From the NCBI GenBank assembly GCA_965223905.1, contig CBDCXV010000001.1:1504001-1568000 (forward strand): a stretch of 64,000 nucleotides of DNA. The letters are read 5' to 3'. A program made the position numbers and the translations under genes. Shown in pieces: positions 2,833-46,613 of this stretch; positions within the stretch are counted from its first letter, which is position 1, and each line of letters starts with the position of its first letter. The notes under the pieces were generated by a model. It ran no database searches. It was not told where the DNA came from and saw only the letters and a list, made by a program, of their open reading frames with translations. The DNA comes from Candidatus Latescibacterota bacterium (lineage in GTDB: Bacteria; Latescibacterota; UBA2968; UBA8231).

Positions 2833-3013
2833 TTCTCCTTTTCTCCTTAAAGTTTGGAGGATGGGGATGAACGTGCGATGCCGAGATCATTGCAACCTAA
2901 CATTGAGTCCTGAAAACCCCATGGGAAGCGGCATGGGCGACCCGCCGACTTTGATGACAAGCCTCTGACAAAGGGAGGGGAATGTCAAGCAAAAACCCAG
3001 AAGCTTGCGCATC

Positions 3014-3535
3014 TCACTTGGGGGCATGGTCTCCCTGGCTTGCCGAAGCGGTCGAGATCTCGGATGGTTGCACCCTGTTCATCGGGTCGTGACCGATGGC
3101 TACCATCTTGGTCACCGGACTCACCGTCAGCTTCTGATACTGCTCAAACGGCGACCATCGCTTGGCCCCCGGCGTCGACGACAGGTGCCTGGCCTGATCC
3201 TGGGGGGGATCGACATTGACCAGGCGAAAAGCCTCTGCCTCGTCCCAAGGTTCCATGCCCGGAAAACGGTATGTTACCCAGATGATTTTTCCCATCCGCG
3301 AAAAGGCGGTGATCTTGGCTCCCATCACATTGGGCCAGCTCCCATATCCGTGGCCTTCCGGAACCATGGGATCCGCAGTGTACTGCTCGGGTTTCCCCCA
3401 GCGTTCAGAGACTTCCTCGAAACTACTGCCCAGCACACGGTGTACGTCGAGCGGTCGCTCCTCCTCGCGCGTGCAAGACCCGCTGGCGAGCAAGGCGCAG
3501 ATCAGAGCGAACGCGCTCCCCCGGCTGTTGGTCAT
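3014..3535 (-). CDS. Hypothetical lipoprotein
   Basis: Start moved to MTNSRG (3535); lipobox-like LLASGSC; natural-looking composition, unlike the overlapping + strand extension. Confidence 0.7.
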   Translation of the reverse strand: MTNSRGSAFALICALLASGSCTREEERPLDVHRVLGSSFEEVSERWGKPEQYTADPMVPEGHGYGSWPNVMGAKITAFSRMGKIIWVTYRFPGMEPWDEAEAFRLVNVDPPQDQARHLSSTPGAKRWSPFEQYQKLTVSPVTKMVAIGHDPMNRVQPSEISTASASQGDHAPK

Positions 3536-3772
3536 CTTCTCGCTCCCTGCCGCCCCGCGATCGATCTCCTCGCAGGGAATCCATGGAGTCCAGAAAATGG
3601 GGAAGGGTCTCGGAGCCGGCAAAGTGAGTGGGTGGGGACCTCACCGCGCCGGGCGGGCTTCGGGCCCGGCGCGCAGGCAGCCTCCTTGACCGGTGGTGAT
3701 CCCGTGTTACACCCCAGGCCAGGATCCCCGCGCGAACTCTTTGCAGGCGTTGCAGGCGCGGACGTAACCCGG

Positions 3773-5710
3773 ATGGAGTTTTTCCGCGGACTGCTGGCGA
3801 TCCTCGCCGTGGCGGCCGCGTTGGCCCTCCCGACGGCCTGCGGGCCACAACCGGAGAGGCCGAACGTGGTCGTCCTCCTCATGGACACGCTCAGGGCGGA
3901 TCGGCTCGGCTGCTACGGATACGCCCGGGCGACCAGCCCAGCCGTCGACAGCCTCGCGGCAGCCGGGGTCGTTTTCACCCGCTGTTACGCCCCGTCGGAT
4001 TACACCCAGGCCTCCACAGCTTCGCTCTTCACCGGGAAATACCCGCTTGCGCACGGATATGTGAACTCCAACTACGTGCTCGAAGATTCCAACCTGACCA
4101 TTGCCGAGATCTTCCGCGACGCCGGCTACACCACTGCGGGGTTTATCGCCAACGGCCTCGCGGGCAGAAAGTACCGGATGGATCAGGGCTTCGAGATGTA
4201 TTTCGAGAAGAACAGGGCGTCGGCTCCAGAGTTGTCGGCGGCAGCCACGGCCTTTATCGGTACACAGTCGGCTGCGGGCGGCCCGCCCTTTTTCATGTAC
4301 TTGCATTTCCTCGACGTCCACGATCCACACCGGATTCCCCCCACCCACTTCGGCAGGTTCGCCGACCCGGCCGCCTTCGCGTTCGACATGCAGGATACCC
4401 TGCTGCTGGAGACTTTCGCGATGCGGGCCTGGTGGTCCGTGGTCCAGAAGTGGCGGCCTGGGAAGGAAGGGGAGATCGCCACCTACTTCGACGACTACTC
4501 GGATCTCTACGACGCTTCCATCGCCTACTGGGACGATTCCGTGGCGGCGATCCGGGAGTCGCTGGCCGCGAACGGCTTCGATCGCAACACCATCATCGTC
4601 GTCACCTCCGACCACGGGGAACAGCTTCTTGAGCACGGCTTTTTCGGACACGCCAACTCCGGCTACGAGGTGGGCCTGCACGTCCCTCTCATCCTTTTCG
4701 ACCCCTATGCTGATGGGGGCAATCGCGGCAGACGGCTTTCTCACCTGGTCGGCCTCGTGGATGTTTTACCCACCCTGCTGAACCGGGTCGGGATCGAGGT
4801 TCCCGCGCAGGTTCAGGGTCGGTCGCGCTGGCCGTACGACCCGGCGCCGGAGGGCACCCCCGAAGAGGATGCCGCAACCGTGTACACAGAGGGAACCTTC
4901 TTTAAAAACCGCCCGGTCGGCACCCTGATCCAGTCCTACCGGCAGGGGGACTGGAAGCTCCTCCTTGACCGCTTGCGAGACTCCAAGGAACTCTACGATC
5001 TGCGCCGCGACCCCGGCGAAACCCGGAACCTGTTCGACGCACGGCCGGAGATCGCCTCGAGACTTTTCGACGGCCTGCGGCAACAGTACAACGGGAATCT
5101 CGAGATCTTCGACGCCCGCTCGAGGTCGCCGATGGAACAGGTCGAGGAGAAGCTGGAGGAGCTCCAGTCGCTGGGGTACGTGACCGCTGTGGATCCTCCT
5201 CGTGGGGCCCCGGCCCAGTATTTTCCCATCGCGGCGGCCGATCTGACCCGGTTTGGACCGTTCGGGGACGAGGAAGACCTTCACCTGTTCAATAATGTCG
5301 ATTTCTCCCGTCGTGGCCGAATCGCGCTTGGGCAGATCGTGCGCGGCTGCAGTGAAGACCCCAGTCGCGCCGACACTTCGGGGGTCTGGTTTGACCGGCG
5401 TTCCACTTTCCTTTTGCGGAATGACGGGCGCATGTGGCGCATTTTCTTCGAAATCCTGATCGATCCGCACGCGCCCCTGCACCCGACACGGATCCAGGTT
5501 GAATTCAACGATGCGCCAGGAGAGTCGTTTCGCATCTCCGGCCCCGGGCATCATCGGCTGGAGAGCGCTCTGCCGGCGTCCCTGTGCGCCCCGGGATATT
5601 TCCACGCTGGATTACTGGCCGATCGCCGCTTTGTCCTGCGCGCGGGAACCTCGCCCAGATCAGACCGCTACGCCTCCATAAAAATCCGCCGTGTCGGCCT
5701 GGGGCAGTGA
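3773..5710 (+). CDS. Sulfatase-like hydrolase/transferase (alkaline phosphatase superfamily), lipoprotein, with extra C-terminal domain
   Basis: Lipobox LPTAC; PNVVVLLMDTLRADRLGCYGY; YTQASTASLFTG; HFLDVHDP; TSDHGE..EHG; LHVPLI; LQSLGYV. Confidence 0.9.
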   Translation: MEFFRGLLAILAVAAALALPTACGPQPERPNVVVLLMDTLRADRLGCYGYARATSPAVDSLAAAGVVFTRCYAPSDYTQASTASLFTGKYPLAHGYVNSNYVLEDSNLTIAEIFRDAGYTTAGFIANGLAGRKYRMDQGFEMYFEKNRASAPELSAAATAFIGTQSAAGGPPFFMYLHFLDVHDPHRIPPTHFGRFADPAAFAFDMQDTLLLETFAMRAWWSVVQKWRPGKEGEIATYFDDYSDLYDASIAYWDDSVAAIRESLAANGFDRNTIIVVTSDHGEQLLEHGFFGHANSGYEVGLHVPLILFDPYADGGNRGRRLSHLVGLVDVLPTLLNRVGIEVPAQVQGRSRWPYDPAPEGTPEEDAATVYTEGTFFKNRPVGTLIQSYRQGDWKLLLDRLRDSKELYDLRRDPGETRNLFDARPEIASRLFDGLRQQYNGNLEIFDARSRSPMEQVEEKLEELQSLGYVTAVDPPRGAPAQYFPIAAADLTRFGPFGDEEDLHLFNNVDFSRRGRIALGQIVRGCSEDPSRADTSGVWFDRRSTFLLRNDGRMWRIFFEILIDPHAPLHPTRIQVEFNDAPGESFRISGPGHHRLESALPASLCAPGYFHAGLLADRRFVLRAGTSPRSDRYASIKIRRVGLGQ

Positions 5711-5834: not shown

Positions 5835-8195
5835 GTGCAGTCCAAACCGGTGTCCTTGCGTCTCCCACACCTCGCCTCCAGCGCGCTGATCTGCTGGATT
5901 GCCCTCCCCTGCGCCGCCCGGGTCGACGGGGGCCCGGAGCAGGCTCTGTCGCGTTTCGCCACCCGGGAGATGGAGCGGCTGGAGACCGTCGGACCGGTGG
6001 TGAAGAGGGCGACTATCTCGCGCTACTTTGCCGCCTATCCACTCCCCACGAGGGAAAGGGAGGTCCAGCGTCTTCTGGGAACGGCGCAACGCATCCTCGT
6101 TGCTTTCGCCGGCAAGCTTCAGACAGCCGCCCGGGAGCGGGTGCGGAAGGATGGGTCCTCCGCCATCGAGCAGGCCCATATCACCGCCGCGGTCGAGAAG
6201 CTGTTGCCCGGCGCTGACAGCCCCTACAAGACCCGCATCTTCTTTCCGCGGGCCCCCCTCGGGGACCAGGTGGAGGTCGAGCTCATGGACCTCCGGGCAT
6301 TCCAGGACACCCCACTTCCCTGGCGCGCCCTCGCTGCACCGATGAGACCGGCGGCGCGCCTTGCCTTCAGGGACGAGGTCGCCCTGGGGGAGTTCGCGGC
6401 GGCGGTGAGCTCCCACGGACTGCTCATCTTCCGGCTGGCGGGGAAGTTCGCCAGTGAAGATTTCAGCCCCGCGGTAACGAGCCCACACCTGCGCAGGGCC
6501 GAGAAAGCGATCGCCCGGCGGGCAGGGAGCGCGGTAACAGAGGCGCCGACCTCCACGGCGCCGGTACCCCTCCAGGTCCGCTTCGTCGACGTCGCCGGGG
6601 CGAACGGCATCCGCTTTCGCCACGTCAGCAGCGACTGGATCTCCCGTTTCCGGCGTTACGGGCCCCTGGCCCCTACCTTCAGCGGTGGCGGCGTTACCGC
6701 CGGGGACCTGGACGGCGACGGGTGGCCGGATCTCGTCTACTGCGGCGGAGAAGGATGCGCGGCATTCAGAAACCAGCACGACGCGACCTTCGAGGAGGTG
6801 ACGGCAGCCAGCCGGATCAATGTTCCCGGCGAGGCCCGAATGAGCCTTGTCGCCGACTTCGACAACGACGGCGATCAGGACCTTTTCATCACCTACGCCC
6901 GCGATACGAACCGGCTCTTTCGCAATGGCGGTGGCGGACGTTTTGAAGACATCACCCCTCAGTCCGGTCTGCGGACAACCGAAGACATCAGCGGCCCCGC
7001 CATCGCCTTCGACCACGACAACGACGGCTCCCTGGACGTCTACGTCGGGAATTTCGGTGACTACCTAAACGGCGCCACGCCGTGGGTCTCACCCGATTCC
7101 CAGAACGCCCAGAGCAATCGCCTGTATCGCAACCTGGGGGAAATGCGCTTCGAAGACGTGACCGATGGCGCCGCCGGCAATACCGGCTGGACCCAGGCGC
7201 TCTCCCACGTCGACTACAACCAGGACGGCTACCAGGACATCTACATCGCCAACGACTTCGGCTCCAACGAGCTGCTCGAAAACCAGGGCGACGGGACCTT
7301 CCGGGCAAGGGGAGAAGCAGGAACCACGGGGGACCGTTTTCACGGCATGTCGGTAGCATTCGCCGATCTCAATCGCGACACCTATGCCGACATCTTCATC
7401 AGCAACATCTGGGGCTGGGTCCCCACCGAGCGCGAGCCCGGCGAAACCAACTCGCTCCTGATCTCCGCGGCGCGGGAAAACGGAGTCAGGTACCGAAGCG
7501 ATCGCAGCCGGATTCCAGGTTTGATCCGGCGCGATACCGGGTGGTCCTGGGCTGCCCTGTTCTTCGACGCCGACAACGACGGCGATGACGATCTGTTCGT
7601 CGCCAACGGTCTCACGGATTACAGCACGGCGCGCCAAGTCCGGCCCCACCCGACGCGTTCCGGCCTTCTGTACCCGGTCTCCCACAACCGCGAGAGAAAC
7701 CTGTTCTTCCTCCATCAGGACGGACTGCTCGAAGTCCCCCCGGAGGTGAGCGGCGCCGAACTGGGCGGCTGCAACTCCCGCGCCATCGCCCTTCTCGACT
7801 ACGACCGGGATGGCGATCTCGATATGGCCCTGAGTACCTTCCATTCCTCGGCGCGCCTGTTCCGCAACGACGGCGCCCCGCGCGCCAATCACTGGCTTTC
7901 CGTGGAGCTCGTCGGCGATCCCGCCCGGGGCGTCAACCGCAACGCCATCGGGGCTCGACTCATCGCTCGCAACGCCGATTCGGGTCTGTATGTCTGGCGC
8001 GCGGTGACGGGAGGCGAGGGATACATGGCGATGAGCACGCTCCCGGTCGGCATCGGTCTTGGTGAGGCCCGCAGCGTCGACCTCGAGATCCATTGGCCGG
8101 GGATGGAACGCCAGGTGGTCGAGGAGATCGCCGCCGAACAGAGGATCCGCATTTACCAGGGCAACCCCGTTTTCGAGAGCATCGACCCTCGCTGA
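5835..8195 (+). CDS. CRTAC1/ASPIC-UnbV FG-GAP repeat protein with N-terminal helical (histone-fold-like) doublet
   Basis: Repeated GDLDGDGWPDL / ADFDNDGDQDL / DYNQDGYQDI motifs; NHWLSVELVG...NRNAIGARL ASPIC C-terminus. Start approximate (GTG at 5835 or 5850). Confidence 0.85.
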   Translation: MQSKPVSLRLPHLASSALICWIALPCAARVDGGPEQALSRFATREMERLETVGPVVKRATISRYFAAYPLPTREREVQRLLGTAQRILVAFAGKLQTAARERVRKDGSSAIEQAHITAAVEKLLPGADSPYKTRIFFPRAPLGDQVEVELMDLRAFQDTPLPWRALAAPMRPAARLAFRDEVALGEFAAAVSSHGLLIFRLAGKFASEDFSPAVTSPHLRRAEKAIARRAGSAVTEAPTSTAPVPLQVRFVDVAGANGIRFRHVSSDWISRFRRYGPLAPTFSGGGVTAGDLDGDGWPDLVYCGGEGCAAFRNQHDATFEEVTAASRINVPGEARMSLVADFDNDGDQDLFITYARDTNRLFRNGGGGRFEDITPQSGLRTTEDISGPAIAFDHDNDGSLDVYVGNFGDYLNGATPWVSPDSQNAQSNRLYRNLGEMRFEDVTDGAAGNTGWTQALSHVDYNQDGYQDIYIANDFGSNELLENQGDGTFRARGEAGTTGDRFHGMSVAFADLNRDTYADIFISNIWGWVPTEREPGETNSLLISAARENGVRYRSDRSRIPGLIRRDTGWSWAALFFDADNDGDDDLFVANGLTDYSTARQVRPHPTRSGLLYPVSHNRERNLFFLHQDGLLEVPPEVSGAELGGCNSRAIALLDYDRDGDLDMALSTFHSSARLFRNDGAPRANHWLSVELVGDPARGVNRNAIGARLIARNADSGLYVWRAVTGGEGYMAMSTLPVGIGLGEARSVDLEIHWPGMERQVVEEIAAEQRIRIYQGNPVFESIDPR

Positions 8196-11100
8196 TGGAG
8201 AACGCGACAATCCACCGTCTTCTTCCCCTGTTCCTGGCAGCCAGGCCGCTACCGGCATTCCTGCTGCTGCTGGCCATTCGCTCTCCGACTCTCGCGGACC
8301 CGGCCGAAGAAGCTCGCCTGCGGGAAGCGGCGCGCCTGCGCAGCGTGGCCTTGGCCCGCATGGAGGACGGGGAATACGAACGGGCGGCGGATCACCTCGA
8401 AGAGCTCGCCCGCGCCCTCCCCGACAACATCCTGCCCCCGGTCAACCTCGCCATATGCTACTACCGTCTCAACCGTGCCGAAGAGGCCTTGCGCCAGGTC
8501 GAGAGAGCCCGTCAGCTCGACCCCGACAACGCGCGGATGCTGTACACCCTGGCGCGCATCCTCGGGGAGGATCCGGGGCGCGCCAGAGTGTGGCGCGAGG
8601 TGATCGACCACTTCGCCGCAACGCATCCGCGCGACCCGCGGCCGTACTACCTCGAGGCCCGGCACCTGGCGCTGGGGGGGCAGTTCGCCGCCGCGGTGCC
8701 ATTGTTCCAACAGGCTCTGGCGTCGGCGCCGGAGAACCTGGTCCTGCTGGCGGACCTTCTGGTGGCGGCGGCCGAGGCCGCCGATGCGGAGACCACCGCC
8801 GGGGCCCTGTACGGGATCGAGGACCGGCTGAACGGGTTCGAGGGCAGCATGGCCGACTACGCACGGCGCATTCACCCTCTCGTCGAAGCGGGCAAGACCC
8901 AGGGCTTGCGTCCGGCCGCCCGGGTGATGCGCAACCTCCTGCGTCCCACCGAGCTCTACCGGCTGCATCTGGTCCCCCTCACCGGCGTCCGCCAGGCCGG
9001 TGGCGCGGGCCTGTTCCCGCAGCACGACTTCGACCCGCCCCTGCCCGGGAGCATCCAGGGTGGGCAGGACATCGACATAGCCTTCGCTCAGTCCGGCGAT
9101 TTCGCCCGGCTCGACCTCCCGCAAGCGGCGACCTGGAGGGTTGGCCGTCAGCCGGGCCGCGAGCTGATGCTGGGGGCCGGTGATCATGGGCTGGTGGAGG
9201 TGGCGTTTTCCGCGGGGGGTTTCCAGGCGCGCTCGATCGAGCTGCAACCGGCAGCCCGGGGACCCGTGGTCTCCTGCGACATCGACCAGGACGAAATCGC
9301 GGACCTGGTGATTGCCGATCCCGCCCGCGGCGTTCTGGTGTACCATGGTGAGGCCGACGGTTCGTTCGCGCCGGCACGAACGGTGAGCGCCGCCAGGGAT
9401 GGCGATCGGTACGCCGGTCTCTTCCCGCTCGACATCGATCACGAGGGGGACCTGGATCTCTTCGTCGCGGTCGCCCGTGAGGCTGCTGCCGACCTCTATC
9501 TGCAGAACAACGGCGACGGCACCTGGACGGAGCGGGCCGCGGAACTGGGACTCGCCGGCGCCGCCGTTGCCACCACCGATATCGCGGTCGCCGATTTCGA
9601 CGACGACGGCGATCTGGATTTGTTGACCGTCCACCCCACGGGTCACCCGCGGCTTTACCTGAACCACCGCACCGGCGCCTTCGACGACGGCAGCGCCGCT
9701 TGCGGCCTCGATCAACTGCCGGCGGGATATCGGGCCGTCCACACCGCCGACTTCGACAACGACGGGCGCTTCGATCTCCTGCTGTGGGGAGAGGAGGCGG
9801 CCCAGGCGGTGTTCGCGAACCGGGGGGCGGCATTCGAGCCCGTCGCGCTGCCGGGATCCGCAGACGGCGGTTGGAGCAGCGCCGAGGTGGGCGATTACGA
9901 CAACGACGGCGATCAGGATGTCGCCGCCATCGCCGCCGGCACCGGCGAGTTGCTCCTCCTGCGCAATCGCCGCCTGTCATTCCACCTGATCCCCGCGGGG
10001 GGGAGCGCCGCGGGGACTGCCAGCTTGATCGATGGAGACTTCGATGGCGATGGCGATCTCGACCTCCTCGCCTCCGGCCCGGGCGCGAAGCCGCGCCTGT
10101 TCAGCAACCAGGGGGGCAACCGCAACAATTGGGTGAGAATCAGCCTGAAGGGCCTCAACGACAACAACGCGAAAAACAACATTCAGGGTATGTTCAGCCG
10201 GGTGGAAGCCCGGGCAGGCGACTCCTTCCAGGTTCTCCTGGGCAACGGCGGGGTCAACCATCTGGGGCTCGGCGCCCGGCGCGTGGCCGACGTGATCCGC
10301 GTTGTCTGGACCAACGGCCTGGCGCAGAACTGGCAGCTGGTGAGCGCCAACCAGACCCTGGTCGAGGAGCAGGTCCTGAAAGGGTCATGTCCTTTCCTCT
10401 ACACCTGGGACGGCGACGGCTTCGAGTTCGTCACCGATCTCATGTGGCGTTCGCCGTTGGGGATGATCCTCGCCGACGGCTCCCCGGCGCCGCACCAGTC
10501 AGCCCGGGATTTTGTGCTGATACCGGGTGAGCGGCTGCAGCCCGCCGACGGAGAACTCTGGCTGCAGATCACCGAAGAACTGTGGGAGACGGCCTACGTC
10601 GACCGCTGCTACCTGCTCGCCGTCGACCATCCCGCCGCTGTCGAGCTGGTCGTGGACGAGAAGTTCACCCCCCCTCCCTACGCGACCGAGGCGCCCATCC
10701 ACTGGCTCGCCGACCGCCTGCTACCCGTCGCCGCCCGCGACCACCAGGGCCGCAATGTGCTCGCCCAACTCGAACACCGCGACGGCGACTACGTCGACGG
10801 CCTTCCGCTCAGCCGCTACCAGGGACTGACCGAGGGCCACTTCGTCGAGATGACCTTCCCTCAGGTGCCGGCGGGGGAGCGCCTGCGCCTGGTGCTGTGG
10901 GGCTGGATCTTCCCGACCGACACGAGCATTAACTTCGCCCTGGCGCAGGATGGGTCACGCGACCTGAAGGGCCCCAGCCTCGAAGTGCGCGGCGCGGATG
11001 GAGGCTTTCGCGTCCTCTCCCCTTTCATCGGTTTCCCCAATGGCAAGCGCAAGGCGATGGTGGTGGAGTTGACCGACCTCGTCCCGTCCGGGGACCTGAC

Positions 11101-39035: not shown

Positions 39036-39470
39036 CGATACACCGGGAACCTGTCCGAGTATCCCGTCCTGGCTGCCTGCACGGCGGCAGCCAGGCGGCC
39101 GTCTGTCAAAGCGAACACCCGGGCAGGCTCGCTTCAACGATCCCGGCGAAGCCCGGGGTTGGCCACTCCCGAAAGGTCCAGTCGTTCCCGGCATGTTCTG
39201 GAATCCGTATCGCCGGCACGGTACCTTTCTGCAAAGAAACAAATTTAACCGCTACGATAGCGAAGCAGCCTGCCAAAATTAAGAAAGCCAAGGGTTGCGC
39301 CGGTGAAAGCCGCCCGGGGAGCAGCCCGGCGGCGTCCCGGACATCCTCCGCAGGATGCCGGCGATACGGATGCGGCTGACTGTCCACCTCGTTGGCGGCC
39401 CCTGCTGTTCCCGCGGCGTCCGCAGCGCGGCTACCGGGTTCGTGCCCCGGCCCGAGAAAGGGAGCAAGTC

Positions 39471-41537
39471 ATGAGATCGTTGCCGTTGATGCTGTTCACC
39501 TGCCTCTCCGTATCCGCCCAGGAAGTGCTGCTGGTGGATAAATCGCTGCAGGACCCCATCGCCTTCAAGCCTTTCTTCGAGGATTTTCCGAAAAACGGGC
39601 TCGAGCTCCGCTATCGCCGTTTCCACCCGTCCCTCGTCCTCGATGACGGCGAACGGTTCGATGTGATCATGGTGGCGGGAGGCACCCACCCCGACCCCGC
39701 TGCGACGCACTTGATTCCCGAAGAAGCGGCCCTGCTGACGCGGTTCGTCCGGGGCGGCGGCACCGCCGTCTTCCTGTTCGCCGACCGTTCGACCGACAAC
39801 TACATCTTCAACACCATCCTCGACTCGCTGGGAATCGCCGTGCGCATCGAGGGCAAGCGCATCGAGGACCCGCTGGGCCCGAAGGCGACCATCATTCCAG
39901 CCACCCACTATCTGCATCTGCCCCGGGTCTTCGTCTCCCCCGGTACGCCGCTGGGCGAGGGCATCGAAAACCCGATCGCCGGCGGCAGGTTGCTATCTCT
40001 CCTGATCGGACGGGCCGAGGGCCTGGAGATCCCGGCCTGGAGCGCCACTACCTCGATGCGGCGCGTCGAGGTTGCAGACACCCCCCAAAGGGCCCGCGAG
40101 GCGACCTACGCGGCACAGGCGCGCTCGTACGCGGCGGTGGTGACGGCCGGTGCCGGCAAGGGAAAGGTGATCCTGCTTCCCAGGTACCTGATCAACCTGA
40201 ACGGCTACACCGGCCTGGGGTCGGACAAGCCGGTCGTCCCCCCTTATTTCCTCGAGGACAACAGGCGCTTCGAGCACAATCTGGCACGCTACATCGGCGC
40301 CATCGCCCGCGGCGAATACACGCCGCGGGACGGGATCCCGCTCAGCCGCATCGACAACCTCGACGATTCCAGCGGACTCCCCGAGCCGGAGTTCAGGTTC
40401 CGGAAGGCCGCTCTCGATCCGTCCGCCCGCGAACAGGACTACGACCGGCTGTTGCCCTTTGCAGACGTGCCGCCCCGGCTGCCGGCCTTTCTCGGAGGCC
40501 AGAAGGTCAGGAGCGCCCACGTTTCCCCGCCGGCGAAAGAGCAGGCGCAGGCAGCCTGCCAGACCTTCGAGGATATGGGGCTGAATCTCCTTTACGTCTG
40601 GGGTCTGCGCATGGACCGGGATGAGTCGGGGGAGTTCGAGAAGATCAACGAGCGCAGCGCGGCCTTCCTCGACCATTGTGGCCAGGCAGGATTGAAGGTC
40701 ATGATCTGGGGGTATCACACGGCTACCTGGCTGTGGCAGAACAATGAGCTGCCAACTACCCTCGTTGACGGTACGGGCCGGGTCTACCGGCCGCCCTCCC
40801 CTGTCGATCCGGACACCTGGCACCGCAGCATGACCGAAAAAGCGCGTGAGTATGCCCTCATTGCACGCGAGTATCCGGAAACCGTGGTCGGCACCATGTG
40901 GGACCTGGAGATCTACAACCACCCCGGCCTGAGGATCACCGAAGCCCACGGCTTCGACAATCTCTCCTTCGCCACCTTCGTCGAGACCGAAGGGAAGCGC
41001 CTGCGCGAGGCCGGCCTGTTCGCGGAGGCCTACCGCGTCGACCAGGCGCGGCGCTTTCGCTGGCTCGAGTCGAACGGCCTGCTCAAGAGCTACTACCAAG
41101 CCCTCGAGGAGGGTGTCTACCGCCTTGCCACGCAGACCCGGGAAGAGATCGACGAGGTCTACCCCGGACTGTTGTGGGGACTCTATGCCCCCAACATACC
41201 CCAGAGCTGGTACTACCGGGGCGTGTTCCGCGGTCTGGTCGGCGAGGACAACTCCATCCTCCACATCACCTGGGCGTCCAGAGGCGCCCAGCAGGTCTCT
41301 TACTGGAAGAGCACAATCGGTATCGATCTCATCCACATGCCCGCCATGCTCATGGTGGTGCCGGAGGGCGCCGAATGGGAATCCTACCTGCGCATGTGTC
41401 TGGAAAACGAAGCCGGATACTGGCTCTACGACGCCACTTCACTGATACGGCCCGATCCCGCCAACTGGCGCAGCCGAATGGAGCTGCGAGAGCCTCCCGA
41501 CACCGTCATCGAACACATCAGACGGGCCAACGAATAA
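39471..41537 (+). CDS. Secreted hypothetical protein (class-I GATase-like N-domain + GH-like barrel)
   Basis: Signal MRSLPLMLFTCLSVSA behind GGAG; LTRFVRGGG, GKGKVILL; MWDLEIY. Confidence 0.7.
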   Translation: MRSLPLMLFTCLSVSAQEVLLVDKSLQDPIAFKPFFEDFPKNGLELRYRRFHPSLVLDDGERFDVIMVAGGTHPDPAATHLIPEEAALLTRFVRGGGTAVFLFADRSTDNYIFNTILDSLGIAVRIEGKRIEDPLGPKATIIPATHYLHLPRVFVSPGTPLGEGIENPIAGGRLLSLLIGRAEGLEIPAWSATTSMRRVEVADTPQRAREATYAAQARSYAAVVTAGAGKGKVILLPRYLINLNGYTGLGSDKPVVPPYFLEDNRRFEHNLARYIGAIARGEYTPRDGIPLSRIDNLDDSSGLPEPEFRFRKAALDPSAREQDYDRLLPFADVPPRLPAFLGGQKVRSAHVSPPAKEQAQAACQTFEDMGLNLLYVWGLRMDRDESGEFEKINERSAAFLDHCGQAGLKVMIWGYHTATWLWQNNELPTTLVDGTGRVYRPPSPVDPDTWHRSMTEKAREYALIAREYPETVVGTMWDLEIYNHPGLRITEAHGFDNLSFATFVETEGKRLREAGLFAEAYRVDQARRFRWLESNGLLKSYYQALEEGVYRLATQTREEIDEVYPGLLWGLYAPNIPQSWYYRGVFRGLVGEDNSILHITWASRGAQQVSYWKSTIGIDLIHMPAMLMVVPEGAEWESYLRMCLENEAGYWLYDATSLIRPDPANWRSRMELREPPDTVIEHIRRANE

Positions 41538-41931: not shown

Positions 41932-42855
41932 ATGAATGTCGCCGATACCCGCGCTGTGCTGACAGGCAACGCGGTCGCCGTACCCACCACCATCTGGAAG
42001 CGGCCGGGGGTGCTCGATCCGGAAGCGAACGCCGCGAACGCCGAGTTCCTGTTCGCCAACGGCATCACCTCCGCCGTGTACGCCGGCGGCGTCGGCGAGC
42101 ACGACCGGCTGTCGCCGGAGCAGCAGGTCGAGCTGCTCGCCGCGGTCGCCGCCGCGGTCCGCGGCAAAGCGGACAATCCCTGCCTGGGGACCGGGCTCGG
42201 CCGCACCCTGGAGCGGGTGAAACAGCTGGCGCCAGCCCTTGCCGATCTCGACATCGCCTTCGCCATGATGATGCCCCCGGCCACCGGCGATCCGGAGGAG
42301 CAGTTCGCCTATTTCAGCGAGGTCATGGGGATTCTGACCGAGCACGGGATCGGGCCGATGCTCTACCCGCGGCCTGAGCACCCGATGGAGGTCTCCACTC
42401 TGGAGCGGCTGATGGACGTCTGCGAGGTGCCGGGGGTGAAGCTGGCGAACAACGGCATGCTGCTTGAGTACGCCGAAATGGTCGCCCGCCTCGGGCACGA
42501 GCGCACCGCCTGGCTGTGCGGTACAGCCGGGTGGTGGATGCCGGCGTACGCCGCGGTCGGGGCGGCGCGCGGCATGTCGACGGGGATCGGCAACGCCTTC
42601 CCGGACAAGCCCCTCGACCTGCTGAGGCGCCTTGCCGACGGCAGCTTCGAGCGGGACGACACCTACTGGACGATGGTCCGCATCGAGCAGATCCGCCAGC
42701 GCGACAAGTCGTACATCGCCCTGGTCATCAAGCAGCTGCAGGAGCTGGCCGGCCTTGCCGGCGGCATGAACGGGGACGGCTCCGAGCTGCCGGCCGCGGT
42801 CAAGAGCGAGGTCGAGACCCTGGTGCGGGAGGCCTGCTGGCTGAGCGGCCGCTGA
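41932..42855 (+). CDS. DapA/class I aldolase family protein
   Basis: AGGVGEHDRLSPEQQ; AMMMPP; MLY (Tyr); GVKL (Schiff-base Lys); GMSTGIGNAFP. Confidence 0.85.
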   Translation: MNVADTRAVLTGNAVAVPTTIWKRPGVLDPEANAANAEFLFANGITSAVYAGGVGEHDRLSPEQQVELLAAVAAAVRGKADNPCLGTGLGRTLERVKQLAPALADLDIAFAMMMPPATGDPEEQFAYFSEVMGILTEHGIGPMLYPRPEHPMEVSTLERLMDVCEVPGVKLANNGMLLEYAEMVARLGHERTAWLCGTAGWWMPAYAAVGAARGMSTGIGNAFPDKPLDLLRRLADGSFERDDTYWTMVRIEQIRQRDKSYIALVIKQLQELAGLAGGMNGDGSELPAAVKSEVETLVREACWLSGR

Positions 42856-42993
42856 GCTCTCCCGCCGGGGTCAGAACTTCCCGCTCTGAAGGTCGCCGAC
42901 GATGTCGGCGAGGCAGCCGGCGATCGCCTCGAACATGCGCTCCCCCTTTTCCGCCGAGCCGAAGGTGGGGTCGCCGTAGATCCCCTGCTCCGT
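42819..42993 (+). repeat. 175-bp direct repeat, left copy
   Basis: Matches 45818-45992 with 6 mismatches by manual count; contains the 3' ends of both the dapA-like and the creatininase genes. Confidence 0.97.
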
Positions 42994-43038
42994 GTTTTGT
43001 CCATCTTATGGGCACGTTTCCGGGAGGAGACGACAGTG

Positions 43039-45330
43039 ATGAAGCTTGACCGTTCTCAGTTAGAATTCTGCCGCTCGGACGCGGATCACATCCGGCTGTT
43101 GGCGCCCGCAGGGTGCGGCAAGACGTTTGCACTGCTGCATCGGTGCCGTGAGCTGGCAAGTCAGGCGCGCCACGCCGAACGATTTCTGATCGTCACGTTC
43201 ACCAAGTCAGCGACCACTGAGCTTGAACTACGGCTTGCGCGCGATCGGGATTTTGAGTCGATCCGGGATCAGGTGACGATCAGCACATTGAACGCGTACG
43301 GTTTTCGTCGAATGCGGAATGAGATCAAGGCGCCAAAGCTGCTCTCCTCAAGGAATGATCTGCATTTCGCCATGAGGAATCAGTTGCGGCCGCTGTGGAC
43401 CGTCAAACCCCACTTGGAGGGTGTGATCAATCGGCGCGGAAACGGCGCGCGACAGTTGATGACCGTGATGGACAGCCTGAAGGCGCTGGGGTTCGATCAC
43501 ACCAAGGACACAAACTTCGACAGGTTCAGCGAACATCTGCAGCGGCTACGGGGTCAAGGCTTGGACGCGCAAATCGACGCTCAGTTTGACGTACTGACGA
43601 GGGTGAAGGTGTTGGAGAGCAAGTCCCGCAATGGCGAAGAGGCCCCGGAAGACAGCCCGCGGCAAATGTACAACCGATTCTTCACCTTCTGGCGCGATGC
43701 GGTCTCGCGTCTGCACGAGGAGTCGACCTTTACCTTCGAGGACCAGAAATACTGGTGTTGGCTCGACCTACGGTCCCCGGACAAGGCGGGTAAACGGAAG
43801 CCCCCGGTGACGGGTGTAGCCCGTTTCGACCACATCCTGATCGACGAGTTTCAAGACATCAACCCACTCGACCTGGAACTGATTCGGACGCTGGCGGACC
43901 GACACCGCGCGAGCATCGCGATCGTCGGCGACGACGACCAGGCCATCTTCGAGTGGCGCGGAGCTACGCCTGAGTACATCCTCAATCCCGAGGTCTACTT
44001 CGGCAACCCGTTCCAGACGTACGTGCTTGGCGTCAACTACCGGTCGCCGGCAAACATCGTCGAGTTATCGCAAAACCTCATTCGACATAATTTGAGCCGC
44101 GTCGGGAAGCAGGTGACTGCCGTTCCCGGAGCGCCACGAGCGGTGATTGAGATGCGACCAACTGATTCGATTGGCGAACGTCTCGAACTGGTTTCGAAGA
44201 TCGCGCGAAAACTTCCGCATCCCGGAAAAGTCGCCGTGATTGGGCGCACCCGGGCTCAACTGATCCCCTACGAGGTGTATTACGCCTCCGATGGCGGACC
44301 TGTGCAGATGGCGACTGACCTGGATGTCTTCGCGAGCACGGCATTTGACGGACTTCTCCACCTGCTCGAAATCTGGGAACGACGCGAGGACCGGCGGAGA
44401 TCCCGACAAGTGATTGAGGAGGCCGTCGATGTGTTCAATGCGATCCGCCGTGCGCCCTTCAGCAAAAAGAATGATCGCGAGGTTCGCACCTTTCTCCAGC
44501 GTCTGGATGCGCGAACCTGTGCGGACGCTATCAAGTCGATGGCCGACTACGAGGGGCCTAGATTGTCCGGTAAGACCCACGAGCATCTCGCCGAAATGGG
44601 CAGCAATTTCATTTGCACAGGTGAAGTGTGGGAAGCGATCAGCGCGATCGCCGATGGATTCGACGGTCTGCGATTCGATTTTGAGAAGGCTGAAGACGAC
44701 GTTTGGTACACTGACCCGCCACTCCAGCAGTTGGCCGATATGGCCCACGAGCAGCAAATGAATGTGGACGACCTGATCGACCGCTTGGAGCGAGCTCGCG
44801 ATCAACTTCGGCACTATCAGGGATTCGAGGATGATTCAGGCGATGGTGGCGACGACGCTGAGCGTCCGCTGCATCTGATGACGGCAACCCGGGCGAAGGG
44901 GAAAGAATTCGACACCGTCATCATGCTCGACACGGTCGAGACAATCTGGCCTCACAGGCGCGCACACTCCGTCCGAGAAATCGAGGCTGAGCGACGGCTC
45001 TTCTACGTCGCCTTCACACGGGCGCGACAGCGCGTGATCATGCTCACGGCCGAGGGCGCACCGACCAGCCGCTTCGTCAGGGAGCTGGAGCTCCCAAAAG
45101 TTTGCGGTATTGATAACACGCCCGGGGTCAGCGGCGGAGAACCTCGCATTGTTGGCAGCCGCATTCCGGTCTGGGTTTTGGTGCAGGCCAGCAAATTGGG
45201 CATGGATGAAGCTGACCTTTTGCGCACCTACCCCACCTTGAAGTCGGAGGACTTGGCCAATGCCCGGGCTTATTTCAGGTCGCACCGCGCAGAAATCGAA
45301 CAGCAGATCGCCGACAACGAGTCGGCTTGA
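43039..45330 (+). CDS. UvrD/Rep-like SF1 helicase fused to C-terminal DUF433 (antitoxin-like) domain
   Basis: Motifs APAGCGKT, VTFTKSA, LIDEFQD, VGDDDQAIFEWRGA, NYRS, TATRAKGKEFD, ERRLFYVAFTRAR; then TPGVSGGEPRIVGSRIPV...YPTLKSEDLANARAY; GGAGGAG RBS. Confidence 0.92.
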   Translation: MKLDRSQLEFCRSDADHIRLLAPAGCGKTFALLHRCRELASQARHAERFLIVTFTKSATTELELRLARDRDFESIRDQVTISTLNAYGFRRMRNEIKAPKLLSSRNDLHFAMRNQLRPLWTVKPHLEGVINRRGNGARQLMTVMDSLKALGFDHTKDTNFDRFSEHLQRLRGQGLDAQIDAQFDVLTRVKVLESKSRNGEEAPEDSPRQMYNRFFTFWRDAVSRLHEESTFTFEDQKYWCWLDLRSPDKAGKRKPPVTGVARFDHILIDEFQDINPLDLELIRTLADRHRASIAIVGDDDQAIFEWRGATPEYILNPEVYFGNPFQTYVLGVNYRSPANIVELSQNLIRHNLSRVGKQVTAVPGAPRAVIEMRPTDSIGERLELVSKIARKLPHPGKVAVIGRTRAQLIPYEVYYASDGGPVQMATDLDVFASTAFDGLLHLLEIWERREDRRRSRQVIEEAVDVFNAIRRAPFSKKNDREVRTFLQRLDARTCADAIKSMADYEGPRLSGKTHEHLAEMGSNFICTGEVWEAISAIADGFDGLRFDFEKAEDDVWYTDPPLQQLADMAHEQQMNVDDLIDRLERARDQLRHYQGFEDDSGDGGDDAERPLHLMTATRAKGKEFDTVIMLDTVETIWPHRRAHSVREIEAERRLFYVAFTRARQRVIMLTAEGAPTSRFVRELELPKVCGIDNTPGVSGGEPRIVGSRIPVWVLVQASKLGMDEADLLRTYPTLKSEDLANARAYFRSHRAEIEQQIADNESA

Positions 45331-45334
45331 AAAC

Positions 45335-45673
45335 GTGGCGCGCCTGTACTCCAATGAGAATTTCCCCTTCCCGGTGGTAGAGGCGCTCCGCGGGTTGGGC
45401 TACGACGTGTTGACCATTCAGGAAACAGGCAAAGGGGGCAAAAGCATCGAGGACGAGAAGGTTCTGGAATTTGCCTGTGCCGGCGATCGGATTCTTCTCA
45501 CTCTCAACCGCAAGCATTTTATCGGCCTGCATCAGAAACAACCGGATCACTGTGGCATTATCGTTTGTACTTTTGACCCGGATTTTGTCGGGCAGGCCCA
45601 ACGCATTCACGAGGCCATAGCTGGATCCCCAACTTCTGGAAAGTTGCTTCGCGTCAACAGGCCTGCGATTTGA
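45335..45673 (+). CDS. DUF5615-family PIN-like toxin
   Basis: MARLYSNENFPFPVVEALRGLGYDVLT...DEKVLEFA...RILLTLNRKHF...HCGII; GTG 4 nt after the helicase stop. Confidence 0.9.
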   Translation: MARLYSNENFPFPVVEALRGLGYDVLTIQETGKGGKSIEDEKVLEFACAGDRILLTLNRKHFIGLHQKQPDHCGIIVCTFDPDFVGQAQRIHEAIAGSPTSGKLLRVNRPAI

Positions 45674-45817
45674 GATTCGGCTACTTGTGGAAGCAAGGGT
45701 TCTTCGAGGGGCCAATCAGTCAGAATGACCTCGTCTCCTGGTTGGAAGAGCTTGCCGGGGTAACGAAGCGCCTCGCGTCTGTGAAAATTCTGTCTCCAAC
45801 GGCGACTCGTACCCAAG

Positions 45818-45992
45818 CCTGGTGCGGGAGGCCTGCTGGCTGAGCGGCCGCTGAGCTTTCGCGCCGGCCTCAGAACTTCCCGCTCTGAAGGTCGCCGACG
45901 ATGTCGGCGAGGCAGCCGGCGATCGCCTCGAACATGCGTTCCCCCTTCTCCGCCGAGCCGAAGGTGGGGTCGCCGTAGATCCCCTGCTCCGT
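45818..45992 (+). repeat. 175-bp direct repeat, right copy
   Basis: Matches 42819-42993; supplies the functional 3' end of the creatininase gene. Confidence 0.97.
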
Positions 45993-46613
45993 CATCTCGT
46001 CCATGCGCAGGAACTGCGACACCCGGTCCTCGTACTCCGATTCGGGATGAGTGCCGTCGCGCGGGGGCAGCTCCCCTTTGACGAGATCCGGCCGGATCGA
46101 CAGCATCAGCGACGTCTCCATCTCGCCGGCATGCCCCCAGCCGTGAGGGCCGGCCTCGCGGATCTCGTCGAGAAGGGGCTCGGCCGCCTTCCAGTGCGAC
46201 ACCGCGAACACGCGCGATTCCGGGTAGCGCTCCTTCACCTTCTGCAGGGCGACGGCCATGTCCGGCTGGTTGCCGCCGTGGCCGTTGACGATCAGCACCC
46301 TGGGAAAGCCGGCTTCGATCAGGCAGCCGACGGTCTCGGCGATGAGGTTGACGTGGGTCTCCGAGGTCGCCGTAATGCTGCCGGCGAAGCGCATGTGGTG
46401 GAAGGAGTACCCCAGCCACTGCGTCGGCAGGCAGACGACCTCGCCGGGCAGCTGCCGCTCGAGGCGCGCGACCACCTCGTCGGTCTCCATGGTGTCGGTG
46501 AGGAACGGCAGGTGGGGGCCGTGCTGCTCGAAGGAGGCGATCGGGTAGACGGCCACCAGGTTGCTCTTGTCGAGGGCCGCGACTTCCGGCCAGGTCATTT
46601 CACCCAGTTTCAT
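45870..46613 (-). CDS. Creatininase/creatinine amidohydrolase family protein
   Basis: EQHGPHLPFLTD; VNGHGGN; HAGEMETS; GIYGDP. Confidence 0.92.
   Translation of the reverse strand: MKLGEMTWPEVAALDKSNLVAVYPIASFEQHGPHLPFLTDTMETDEVVARLERQLPGEVVCLPTQWLGYSFHHMRFAGSITATSETHVNLIAETVGCLIEAGFPRVLIVNGHGGNQPDMAVALQKVKERYPESRVFAVSHWKAAEPLLDEIREAGPHGWGHAGEMETSLMLSIRPDLVKGELPPRDGTHPESEYEDRVSQFLRMDEMTEQGIYGDPTFGSAEKGERMFEAIAGCLADIVGDLQSGKF

Follow-up and report, generated by a model that had tools for sequence, protein, structure and literature searches.

In Gabija, a UvrD-like helicase (GajB) works with an OLD-family nuclease (GajA), and in Hachiman the nuclease HamA (DUF1837) is held by an SF2 helicase, HamB. 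Toxin-antitoxin pairs in which a PIN gene is accompanied by a COG2442 (DUF433) gene were predicted as a class in extracts of PMC2701414 and include VapBC10 of Synechocystis and VapB45/VapC45 (Rv2018/Rv2019), as given in extracts of PMC2701414, PMC5499597 and PMC3834315; for vapBC10, toxicity, neutralization, complex formation and cleavage of the antitoxin by ClpXP are reported in an extract of PMC3834315. The classification of DUF433 plus DUF5615 as a toxin-antitoxin type, made in an earlier note on the DNA described below, thus agrees with one paper that predicts such pairs and another that reports a working one. The only COG2442 fusions mentioned in the extract of PMC2701414 are with winged-helix DNA-binding domains, and the only conserved COG2442 neighbors mentioned there are PIN genes. 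Further, complex formation is reported to be universal across the 16 nuclease-NTPase defence systems analysed in 10.1101/2025.07.10.664194.

Here we describe, in a 64,000-nucleotide stretch of a Candidatus Latescibacterota genome (the window), a helicase fused to an antitoxin domain and followed directly by a PIN-like gene. The fusion is a real, rare arrangement that may couple a PIN toxin to a helicase; no published description of a helicase-DUF433 fusion was found in a literature search at the level of listings, supplementary domain-architecture tables aside.

The inserted cassette and its two genes

The two genes lie in a 2.8-kb insert flanked by a 175-nt direct repeat whose copies are 97% identical (Table 1), and the GC content falls from ~0.68-0.70 outside the insert to 0.54-0.60 inside it. 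In another genome of the same genus (G011) the site is empty and uninterrupted, and the 175 nt occur there once. As the earlier note had proposed, the helicase-DUF433 and DUF5615 genes are the entire cargo. The cassette is horizontally acquired; its insertion duplicated 175 bp and separated two metabolic genes that converge on the site: by Pfam, a DHDPS-family gene and, on the minus strand, a creatininase gene (45870-46613). No defence-island context was found at this site, which sits between metabolic genes. The source genome contains seven DUF433-DUF5615 pairs, so that donor toxin-antitoxin modules are plentiful. One RNA-library contig (X7, 260 nt) covers 45450-45708, which is too little to warrant a claim of expression; two other X7 pieces are 38-nt matches to relatives. 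A scan for promoter-like sites (1 against 0.6 expected) and terminator-like sites (3 against 3.1 expected) was uninformative.

Table 1. Features of the cassette and its boundaries, in window coordinates.
Feature	Position	Strand	Remarks
Left 175-nt repeat	42819..42993		Real 3' end of the DHDPS-family gene (stop 42855), spacer, copied fragment of the creatininase 3' end
Left cassette end, untranslated leader	42994..43038	+	GGAGGAGA before the ATG; homology to G010 from 43008
Helicase part of the fusion gene, residues 1-687	43039..45099	+	Complete SF1A UvrD-like helicase
Junction P-K-V-C, DUF433/COG2442 domain and C-terminal tail, residues 688-763, stop	45100..45330	+	
DUF5615/COG4634-type (Mut7-C-like) PIN-like predicted toxin gene	45335..45673	+	112 aa, GTG start
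Right cassette end	45674..45817		Non-coding
Right 175-nt repeat	45818..45992		Copied fragment of the DHDPS-family gene end, real creatininase 3' end

The first gene is a 763-aa open reading frame (43039-45330, from its ATG) in which a UvrD-like SF1 helicase and DUF433 share a single frame without any stop between them. Pfam places UvrD-helicase at residues 5-316 (E 1e-32), UvrD_C at 597-671 (E 2e-23) and DUF433 (PF04255) at 691-745 (E 1.6e-14; 53.9 bits, cut-off 23.6). The frame ends in TGA (45328-45330) and the co-directional DUF5615 gene begins with GTG 4 nt later. The window helicase keeps every column that is invariant in a 31-sequence family alignment, including Walker A (G25, G27, K28, T29), DEFQD (269-273) and GDDDQ (297-301); YRS (334-336), T615-G621 and VAFTRA (657-662) are kept as well, leaving Walker A, DExx and motifs III-VI intact. 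A fusion with intact motifs and a DUF5615 gene at this spacing, both read off the sequence in the earlier note, are therefore confirmed.

Stand-alone members of this helicase family are widespread, are ~690 aa long and end in SRFVxELxLP plus 0-15 residues, which is exactly where DUF433 starts in the window protein. The likeness to GajB that had been pointed out is borne out by PADLOC: 53 of its families match the helicase and, among the 25 matches listed, 24 are GajB models (best PDLC00114, E 4.3e-43, a match that reflects general UvrD likeness) and one is RTasHel. Among solved structures the helicase comes closest to PcrA (1PJR, E 6e-28) and UvrD. The window helicase has its fold class and motifs in common with the housekeeping enzymes, but the NCBIfam equivalog cut-offs (911-1144 bits) lie far above its scores (127-147 bits): 146.7 against 911 for PcrA, 134.6 against 1144 for UvrD and 127.5 against 951 for Rep. 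It occurs only here and there: 2 of the 76 host-family genomes have it and, in another order, 1 of 301, the query's own. By these scores, the family is a distinct accessory one and not a UvrD/PcrA/Rep orthologue.

The earlier note had asked for a check of the join at 45090-45110. A contig from an independent run (X5) spans 44934-45322 with no differences from the window and no misjoin, and the junction ELxLP-x-V-[CS]-GID recurs in G010 DNA, in the protein P0001 and in the fragment P0272; together these rule out an assembly artefact. The fused DUF433 corresponds to about residues 38-109 of 109-aa stand-alone DUF433 proteins, lacking their N-terminal ~37 residues, and is 70-85% identical to many of them (nearest P0273, 85%), while unfused helicases come no closer than 68% identity (62-68% for the nearest ones), which suggests that the DUF433-DUF5615 pair joined the helicase after the family had diversified. 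At the level of sequence, the DUF433 part is shown to descend from an ordinary subfamily of stand-alone antitoxins; a solved structure, PDB 2GA1, also matches it (E 5e-13). If the absent residues carry DNA binding or dimerization, autoregulation would have been lost with them. The earlier statement that the frame has no internal start was wrong: an in-frame ATG lies at 45040-45042 (Met668, a conserved helicase residue), 22 codons upstream of the DUF433 domain, and no Shine-Dalgarno-like stretch was seen before it. Initiation there might give a short, separate DUF433 protein, in which case the fusion would matter less.

The second gene carries DUF5615 (PF18480; 71.2 bits, cut-off 23.8; E 8e-20), has homologues in 1604 cluster representatives at E<=0.001 and starts as they do, their opening MARLY matching the GTG at 45335. 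The earlier note had cautioned that Asn and His at normally acidic positions might mark a degenerate PIN, but the same residues are common when the window protein is set beside its 150 best cluster representatives: 71 sequences have Asp at position 7 and 62 have Asn; 136 have Asn at position 58; at position 61, 80 have His and 68 Asp; and E8, D40, R59, H66 and H72 are nearly invariant. A decayed PIN is ruled out, these being common states of a large, conserved subfamily; its Asn58, and often Asn7 and His61, where other DUF5615 proteins have Asp, may mean a chemistry unlike that of the classical PIN nuclease. No PADLOC model matched this gene.

Structure prediction places the DUF433 part of the fusion against the PIN protein with ipSAE 0.69 (0.71, 0.66 and 0.69 in three runs), the best of three controls reaching 0.00. 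The runs share at least 82% of contacts, with partner pLDDT of at least 83; the mark passed here is one that 58 of 80 solved complexes also reach, against 2 of 110 mismatched pairs, a rough guide since own alignments were used. A sequence search found no solved DUF5615 structure, so that the score is unlikely to be the memory of a solved complex. The predicted interface takes in PIN residues 7-9, 34-41 and 57-61 and fusion residues ~692-733 and 759-763, and is independent of the N-terminal segment lost from stand-alone DUF433. As modelled, the DUF433 domain and C-terminal tail cover the conserved putative active-site face of the PIN.

Spread of the fusion and its relatives

Only one of the 120 best helicase homologues carries DUF433, the other 119 being unfused. 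The fused form makes up one young clade: the window, P0001 (94% identical, with the 763-codon frame likewise intact), the fragment P0272 (whose gene-caller start is the equivalent of Met668) and a decayed copy in G010, a genome of another genus. A length-matched search with the DUF433 part returned two proteins, one of them unrelated. In P0121, the DUF433 domain is of the same subtype but follows an unrelated N-terminal region of 390 aa. Both other genomes of the genus lack the cassette, as do 74 of the 76 in the family. Viral contigs gave only generic UvrD-like matches (21-45% over parts of the query), and plasmids gave none at E 1e-30.

The G010 copy has lost 316 nt in a deletion, is frameshifted at further points and has a stop codon at the junction, and its PIN is truncated; helicase frame and PIN are both broken, as would be expected, in this single case, if neither can be lost alone. 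It adjoins an hsdM gene and a Schlafen/AlbA_2 gene, beyond which no Pfam matches were found in its neighborhood. Between the window and G010, dN/dS is 0.14 and 0.27 for the helicase, 0.16 for DUF433 plus tail (77 codons, with 10 synonymous changes and 6 non-synonymous ones) and 0.39 for the N-terminal half of the PIN, values that in the short segments come from few changes, some of which arose on the pseudogene branch. The low ratio in the fused DUF433 domain shows, for these aligned codons, purifying selection, and with the predicted cover of the PIN active-site face the domain looks functional.

In a distant clade of the helicase family, loci L089 and L062 carry helicase, DUF433 and DUF5615 as separate adjacent genes in one block, 65% identical in nucleotides over 2847 nt. 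Nothing else in these 14-kb loci is homologous between the two, their flanks being unrelated. These genomes have only 2 and 5 DUF5615 matches, so that adjacency by chance is unlikely. Their helicases lie far from the window clade in the tree and their PIN proteins are only 24-26% identical to that of the window; the association has therefore arisen at least twice. A search of 301 genomes of the L089 order for further blocks matched only the query genome.

Elsewhere the family has no fixed company. DUF433 lies beside the helicase in 2 of 80 genome loci and in none of 80 metagenome loci, of which only ~10 (L115-L124) are true family members and one (L150) has a weak DUF5615-like match (E 5e-7). 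Clustering of 2448 flank ORFs from 80 loci found no conserved partner gene, the commonest cluster occurring in 10 loci (SNF2-type, one alphaproteobacterial group). On the homologue check set out in the earlier note, DUF433 occurs fused in 1 of the 120 best homologues and as a separate gene in the L089 and L062 blocks. A look downstream on the helicase strand turned up no toxin-antitoxin family in 72 of the 76 related loci. Other types found downstream are an AF2212-like gene with a PIN (L065) and HicA (L070). Some family members have extra domains (OST-HTH in L091, Mrr_N in P0086) or adjoin AIPR, methylase/HNH, SNF2 or AAA_15/21 genes. A reading of the L091 C-terminal extension as NYN/PIN was unsupported, Pfam giving OST-HTH only and the atlas leads (0.88, below 0.9) likewise OST-HTH; apparent extended helicase frames in L027, L031, L047, L065, L066, L080, L081, L101 and L104 were stop-detection artefacts.

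Proposed readings: tethered antidote or gated toxin

We think the chances somewhat better than even that the cassette carries a toxin-antitoxin pair of the DUF433-DUF5615 kind in which the helicase has captured the antitoxin as its C-terminal domain, so that the toxin is tethered and the cassette must be kept. The stand-alone antitoxin would have lost its N-terminal helix of ~37 residues and its DUF433 would have been joined in frame to the natural helicase C-terminus, leaving the PIN toxin held, neutralized, on the helicase tail. The pair would still be a working toxin-antitoxin module, with an antidote that is supplied only if all 2.3 kb of the helicase frame are transcribed and translated; the PIN would be freed if the cassette were lost, the helicase frameshifted, host gene expression shut off or the tail cut by proteases. 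Such a module would enforce the keeping of an intact helicase gene and stabilize the cassette, and the helicase itself would be an independent accessory DNA helicase, probably tied to conflict with mobile DNA. If the fused tail is the only antidote, the pair becomes a natural enforcer of the integrity of a large unrelated gene, in which any frameshift along 2.3 kb unleashes the toxin: addiction at the level of the gene.

The fusion and the predicted docking also provide the physical coupling that a helicase-gated toxin would need, one in which the helicase, as the sensor, loads on foreign, damaged or single-stranded DNA and, by moving on ATP or by binding DNA, alters its DUF433 tail so as to release or activate the docked PIN in abortive infection or defence. 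We regard this as possible but doubtful. The GajB-type PADLOC matches, the family members with OST-HTH, Mrr_N or conflict-type neighbors (AIPR, methylase/HNH, SNF2, AAA_15/21), the hsdM and Schlafen/AlbA_2 genes beside the G010 copy and the reported universality of complexes in the 16 nuclease-NTPase systems (10.1101/2025.07.10.664194) all speak for it, as do the origin of the association at least twice and the separate-gene block shared by L089 and L062 between unrelated flanks, which fits an integrated system at least as well as it fits a tethered antitoxin. Yet a linked toxin-antitoxin pair that merely stabilizes a mobile helicase cassette would explain the co-transfer equally, the L065 and L070 modules fit a general landing place for toxin-antitoxin genes and not a specific partnership, and the fused form is limited to one young clade, with one known copy (G010) decayed, in a family without a conserved neighbor (10 of 80 at most) and with DUF433 adjoining it so rarely (2 of 80 and 0 of 80 loci). 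There is no sign that this is an established defence system: 119 of 120 homologues are unfused, the window cassette lies outside any defence island and the PIN is without a PADLOC match.

The narrow distribution, the cassette's absence from nearly all related genomes and the wreckage in G010 could be what is left of an accident, a deletion that joined two unrelated neighbors into a functionless chimera now heading for loss. This we consider improbable: the 763-codon frame is intact in both the window and P0001, all family-invariant helicase residues are kept, dN/dS is low in helicase (0.14-0.27) and DUF433 (0.16) alike, the PIN retains the conserved residues of its subfamily, and its interface with DUF433 is predicted confidently. 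Returning to control of the toxin by the helicase, a bolder and decidedly tentative form of that idea is a minimal, self-mobile immune module of two genes, in which the helicase senses invading or damaged DNA and an antitoxin-derived tail releases a PIN-like effector; the fused form in the window and the L089/L062 block would then be independent inventions of one system and DUF433 a general adaptor for plugging PIN toxins onto larger sensors, with P0121 as another case. If the helicase does control the toxin, this would be a very small defence system of new architecture, built from two of the commonest parts of conflict systems, and would show how such systems can be born from a chance neighborhood of helicase and toxin-antitoxin genes.

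Comparison with described systems

As in the PIN-COG2442 pairs, the window DUF433 domain is followed directly, after a 4-nt spacer, by a PIN-like gene on the same strand; by prediction only, it contacts the toxin over its conserved face. The antitoxins of those pairs are small separate proteins (~70-110 aa), whereas here the domain forms the C-terminal part of a 763-aa helicase and, unlike the 109-aa stand-alone DUF433 proteins, is without the N-terminal ~37 residues.

Like Gabija, the locus pairs a GajB-type UvrD-like helicase with a predicted nuclease; unlike Gabija, the partner is a small PIN-like predicted toxin that would be bound through an antitoxin domain. Membership in Gabija was rejected: there is no GajA (OLD-family ATPase plus TOPRIM) in this two-gene cassette with its DHDPS-family and creatininase flanks. 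In logic, the gated form would resemble both Gabija and Hachiman; as in Hachiman, a helicase would keep a nuclease inactive and could let it go once DNA is sensed. The helicase here is of SF1A, unlike that of Hachiman, and the effector belongs to another family; the likeness lies in the proposed working and not in membership.

The fusion gene, its junction and its PIN partner

The helicase gene of the cassette does run in frame, with no stop, into a DUF433 domain, as the earlier note had described: Pfam places UvrD-helicase, UvrD_C and DUF433 in one frame of the predicted protein, and the DUF5615 gene begins 4 nt past the TGA of the fusion (see table). The motifs said to be intact are so; aligned to 30 relatives, the window protein keeps every family-invariant column, including Walker A, DEFQD, GDDDQ, YRS and VAFTRA. 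Members of the family stop 0-15 residues after ...SRFVxELxLP in this alignment and the window junction reads ...SRFVRELELP-KVC-GIDNTPGVSGGEP..., so DUF433 starts at the helicase's usual stopping point. The statement that there is no in-frame internal start was wrong: an ATG at 45040 (Met668, a conserved helicase residue) lies 22 codons upstream of DUF433. A longer DUF5615 frame, from an ATG at 45260, was rejected as the gene because homologues begin M-A-R-L-Y precisely at the GTG.

Features of the cassette and other DUF433-DUF5615 pairs in the source genome (G000)
Feature	Position	Strand	Details
Open frame of fusion gene	42997-45330	+	ATG at 43039; 763-aa protein
UvrD-helicase domain	residues 5-316 of 763-aa protein	+	Pfam
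UvrD_C domain	residues 597-671 of 763-aa protein	+	Pfam
DUF433 domain	residues 691-745 of 763-aa protein	+	Pfam, 53.9 bits (cut-off 23.6)
DUF5615 gene	GTG start at 45335	+	Pfam, 71.2 bits (cut-off 23.8)
175-nt direct repeat around both genes	42819-42993 and 45818-45992		97% identical
Other G000 pair	C1:1251336-1251850
Other G000 pair	C1:1295478-1295995
Other G000 pair	C9:755902-756428
Other G000 pair	C10:151233-151729
Other G000 pair	C11:1050092-1050677
Other G000 pair	C11:2050783-2051258

The junction is real. Logan contigs from four sequencing runs were mapped to 42700-46100: a 389-nt contig from run X5 spans 44934-45322 with 0 differences, contigs from runs X1 and X3 cover 30 of 30 bins, and the same junction occurs in a homologous protein (P0001, 762 aa, 94% identical), in a fragment (P0272) and in the DNA of G010, a genome from another genus of the same family.

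The Asn and His at normally acidic PIN positions, raised earlier as a caveat, do not indicate degeneration. A complete search of 1.84 billion cluster representatives returned 1604 relatives at E <= 0.001 (571 at E <= 1e-10). In the set formed by the window protein and its 150 best relatives, position 7 is split between D (71) and N (62) and position 61 between H (80) and D (68), position 58 is N in 136 sequences, and E8, D40, R59, H66 and H72 are kept in 131, 145, 141, 146 and 139, respectively; unlike the window copy, the six other G000 PIN copies and the copy at helicase locus L089 have D...DxD at the corresponding places. These counts point to a separate, conserved PIN-like subfamily with a different polar residue set, and a degenerate PIN was rejected, the Asn and His states being common across this set.

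Insertion and decay of the cassette

The two-gene cassette is an insert: it is flanked by the direct repeat, its GC content is lower, and in G011, of the same genus, the DHDPS-family gene runs directly into the convergent creatininase gene with a single 175-nt copy. Together with the domains and the junction contigs, this empty site bears out the earlier observation as a whole, a fusion and paired PIN gene as the cargo of an inserted cassette. Genome G012 carries at the same spot a different 2.27-kb insert (L113 = G012:C3:3873500-3880500, about 2297-4564) that encodes a Mutator/IS256-type transposase and has, on the minus strand, two small ORFs with no Pfam match; the short spacer between the two genes (window 42862-42876 / 45862-45875) has thus been hit twice and is empty in G011. 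The cassette's neighbours in the window are metabolic (DHDPS family, creatininase, ADH, SDR), and Pfam gave no match at E <= 0.001 for a nearby 744-aa ORF (39303-41537, +). Of the family's 76 genomes, only G000 and G010 have the helicase.

The G010 copy has decayed. Relative to the window it has a frame-shifting 316-nt deletion (43972-44287) and at least two further frame changes, TAA replaces the junction Pro codon, and the PIN gene is cut at 45507 and continues into 102 nt from the 3' end of a creatininase gene; both forms are present in runs X1 and X3 (43964 joined to 44281, and 45492 to 42876). The remnant has hsdM and Schlafen/AlbA_2 genes as neighbours. The creatininase piece closing it (locus L026, 8776-8877) corresponds to window 42876-42977 / 45875-45976, and blastn of that locus gave no match for either the DHDPS-family gene or the remainder of the creatininase gene. 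The cassette seems to have travelled with a piece of a former target, which may explain both homology-based integration and the 175-nt repeat. Synonymous divergence between the two copies is about 0.40 in the first helicase third (43039-43962) and about 0.16-0.22 elsewhere (44290-45487), which hints at recombination within the cassette.

Spread of the fusion and helicase neighbourhoods

Helicase homologues at E <= 1e-10 number 4541; in the best 120 only P0001 carries DUF433 (PF04255), the other 119 being unfused, about 680-700 aa long and 53-68% identical. The DUF433 part scored alone matched 2 of 38 candidates of 419-1336 aa, P0001 and P0121. In P0121 (465 aa, from a 2673-nt metagenome contig) the same DUF433 subtype, 64% identical and with the fusion's C-terminal tail, follows an unrelated N-terminal region of about 390 aa, which contains a hydrophobic stretch as well as a weak match to SH3_3. 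At least two large proteins unrelated to each other therefore end in this subtype. In the size range of 30-418 aa, the DUF433 part matched 455 of 463 candidates; nearly all of the best 120 are 109 aa long, DUF433 alone and 66-90% identical, the closest full-length one being P0273 (85%). The fusion lacks, by alignment, the first ~37 residues of these proteins (consensus ...MTRAEKAQLLQWVVRDLGDAFP). The fused part therefore derives from an ordinary stand-alone DUF433 subfamily and, given its closeness to the 109-aa proteins and the much greater distance of the nearest unfused helicases, seems to have joined an already diverged helicase. These searches need shared 5-residue words, and more distant fusions may have escaped. 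G000 itself has 15 DUF433 and 7 DUF5615 matches, with 7 adjacent pairs including the window's.

Our own HMMs found DUF433 and DUF5615 together in 2 of 80 helicase-family loci from species genomes (L089 and L062), as separate genes right after the helicase stop. The two loci have only this three-gene block in common (65% identity over 2847 nt; L089 5991-8876), their 6-kb flanks being unrelated, and their genomes hold only 2 and 5 DUF5615 matches. The separate DUF433 proteins are long (149 aa, L089 8092-8541; 134 aa, L062 8117-8521), and that of L089 ends in a strongly acidic tail, differing in this from the 109-aa relatives of the window domain. In a midpoint-rooted tree of 76 helicase proteins without support values (14 of the 80 loci were left out for frame problems or short frames), the fused clade is nested among unfused proteins, far from L089 and L062.

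Pfam was run on 242 same-strand ORFs of 55-260 aa starting within 1 kb downstream at 76 loci, and on 67 best downstream ORFs; minus-strand and most longer ORFs fall outside this set, and L084, L093, L100 and L106 lack the motif used for placing the helicase stop. Toxin-antitoxin families follow in 4 of the 76 loci. Besides L062 and L089, with DUF433 and DUF5615, these are L065 (5995-9585), where an insertion sequence (two transposase ORFs, 7532-8316) splits the helicase and the genes directly after it encode an AF2212-like antitoxin (8890-9186) and a PIN protein (9214-9585), and L070, with a HicA toxin domain within 700 nt. Other neighbours are of defence type (AIPR, methylase with HNH, AAA_15/21, SNF2) or housekeeping (cytochrome bc, amidohydrolase, IMPDH); no family-wide conserved neighbour was found in the 80 loci, and no family member was seen in searches of viral contigs and plasmids. 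Two members carry other domains: a 918-aa Anaerolineae protein (L091 6001-8757) has a C-terminal extension of about 260 aa ending in OST-HTH/LOTUS, preceded by weak OST-HTH-like leads only, and P0086 (838 aa) has an N-terminal Mrr_N domain.

Interpretation and known systems

These facts fit a recent capture of a DUF433-DUF5615 pair by a helicase. A common pair would have sat behind an accessory helicase, a deletion would have taken out the stop codon of the helicase together with the spacer and the initial ~37 codons of the antitoxin, and the chimera would since have been kept by selection. The antidote would now be the tail of a large protein holding the toxin on the helicase, so that any break in helicase frame or expression would free the toxin; we give this minimal mechanism somewhat better than even chances. 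Complex prediction from the last 89 fusion residues and the PIN, each as an alignment, supports binding of the PIN by the DUF433 tail: ipSAE is 0.69 (runs 0.71, 0.66, 0.69) against 0.00 for the best of three controls, with contact agreement of at least 82% and partner pLDDT of at least 83. Of 80 solved complexes 58 pass the mark used, as do 2 of 110 mismatched pairs; these counts are approximate here since own alignments were used. The predicted interface joins a conserved PIN face (residues 7-9, 11-13, 34-41, 57-61) to the DUF433 domain and the last tail residues. The PDB holds a DUF433 structure (2GA1), and no DUF5615 structure was found there by sequence.

The earlier interpretation is supported in part. 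Its bolder element, in which DNA sensing by the helicase would control the PIN, draws on the three-gene block travelling as a unit in L089 and L062, but the restricted distribution of the fusion and the occurrence of other toxin-antitoxin types in the same position speak against it, and we rate it as less likely than not. That the fusion is a functionless accident we hold to be improbable; between window and G010, dN/dS is 0.14 and 0.27 in the N and C parts of the helicase, 0.16 in DUF433 and tail (10 synonymous, 6 non-synonymous changes, 77 codons) and 0.39 in the first PIN half (5 and 7).

The window helicase was rejected as a UvrD, PcrA or Rep orthologue, and the cassette is not Gabija because GajA is absent. 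Nuclease-NTPase defence systems are reported to form complexes (10.1101/2025.07.10.664194). Other published work describes clusters of COG4634 and PIN_10, with a DUF433-PIN_10 pair within a restriction-modification island (PMC5499597), vapBC10 as a working pair (PMC3834315), and COG2442-PIN pairs, with COG2442 fusions reported there to winged-helix domains only (PMC2701414). Supplementary material apart, we found no published description of a helicase-DUF433 fusion. By its two domains and the way they are arranged, the cassette belongs to the PIN-COG2442 toxin-antitoxin module, except that the antitoxin, small and separate in that module, is here the C-terminal part of a helicase.
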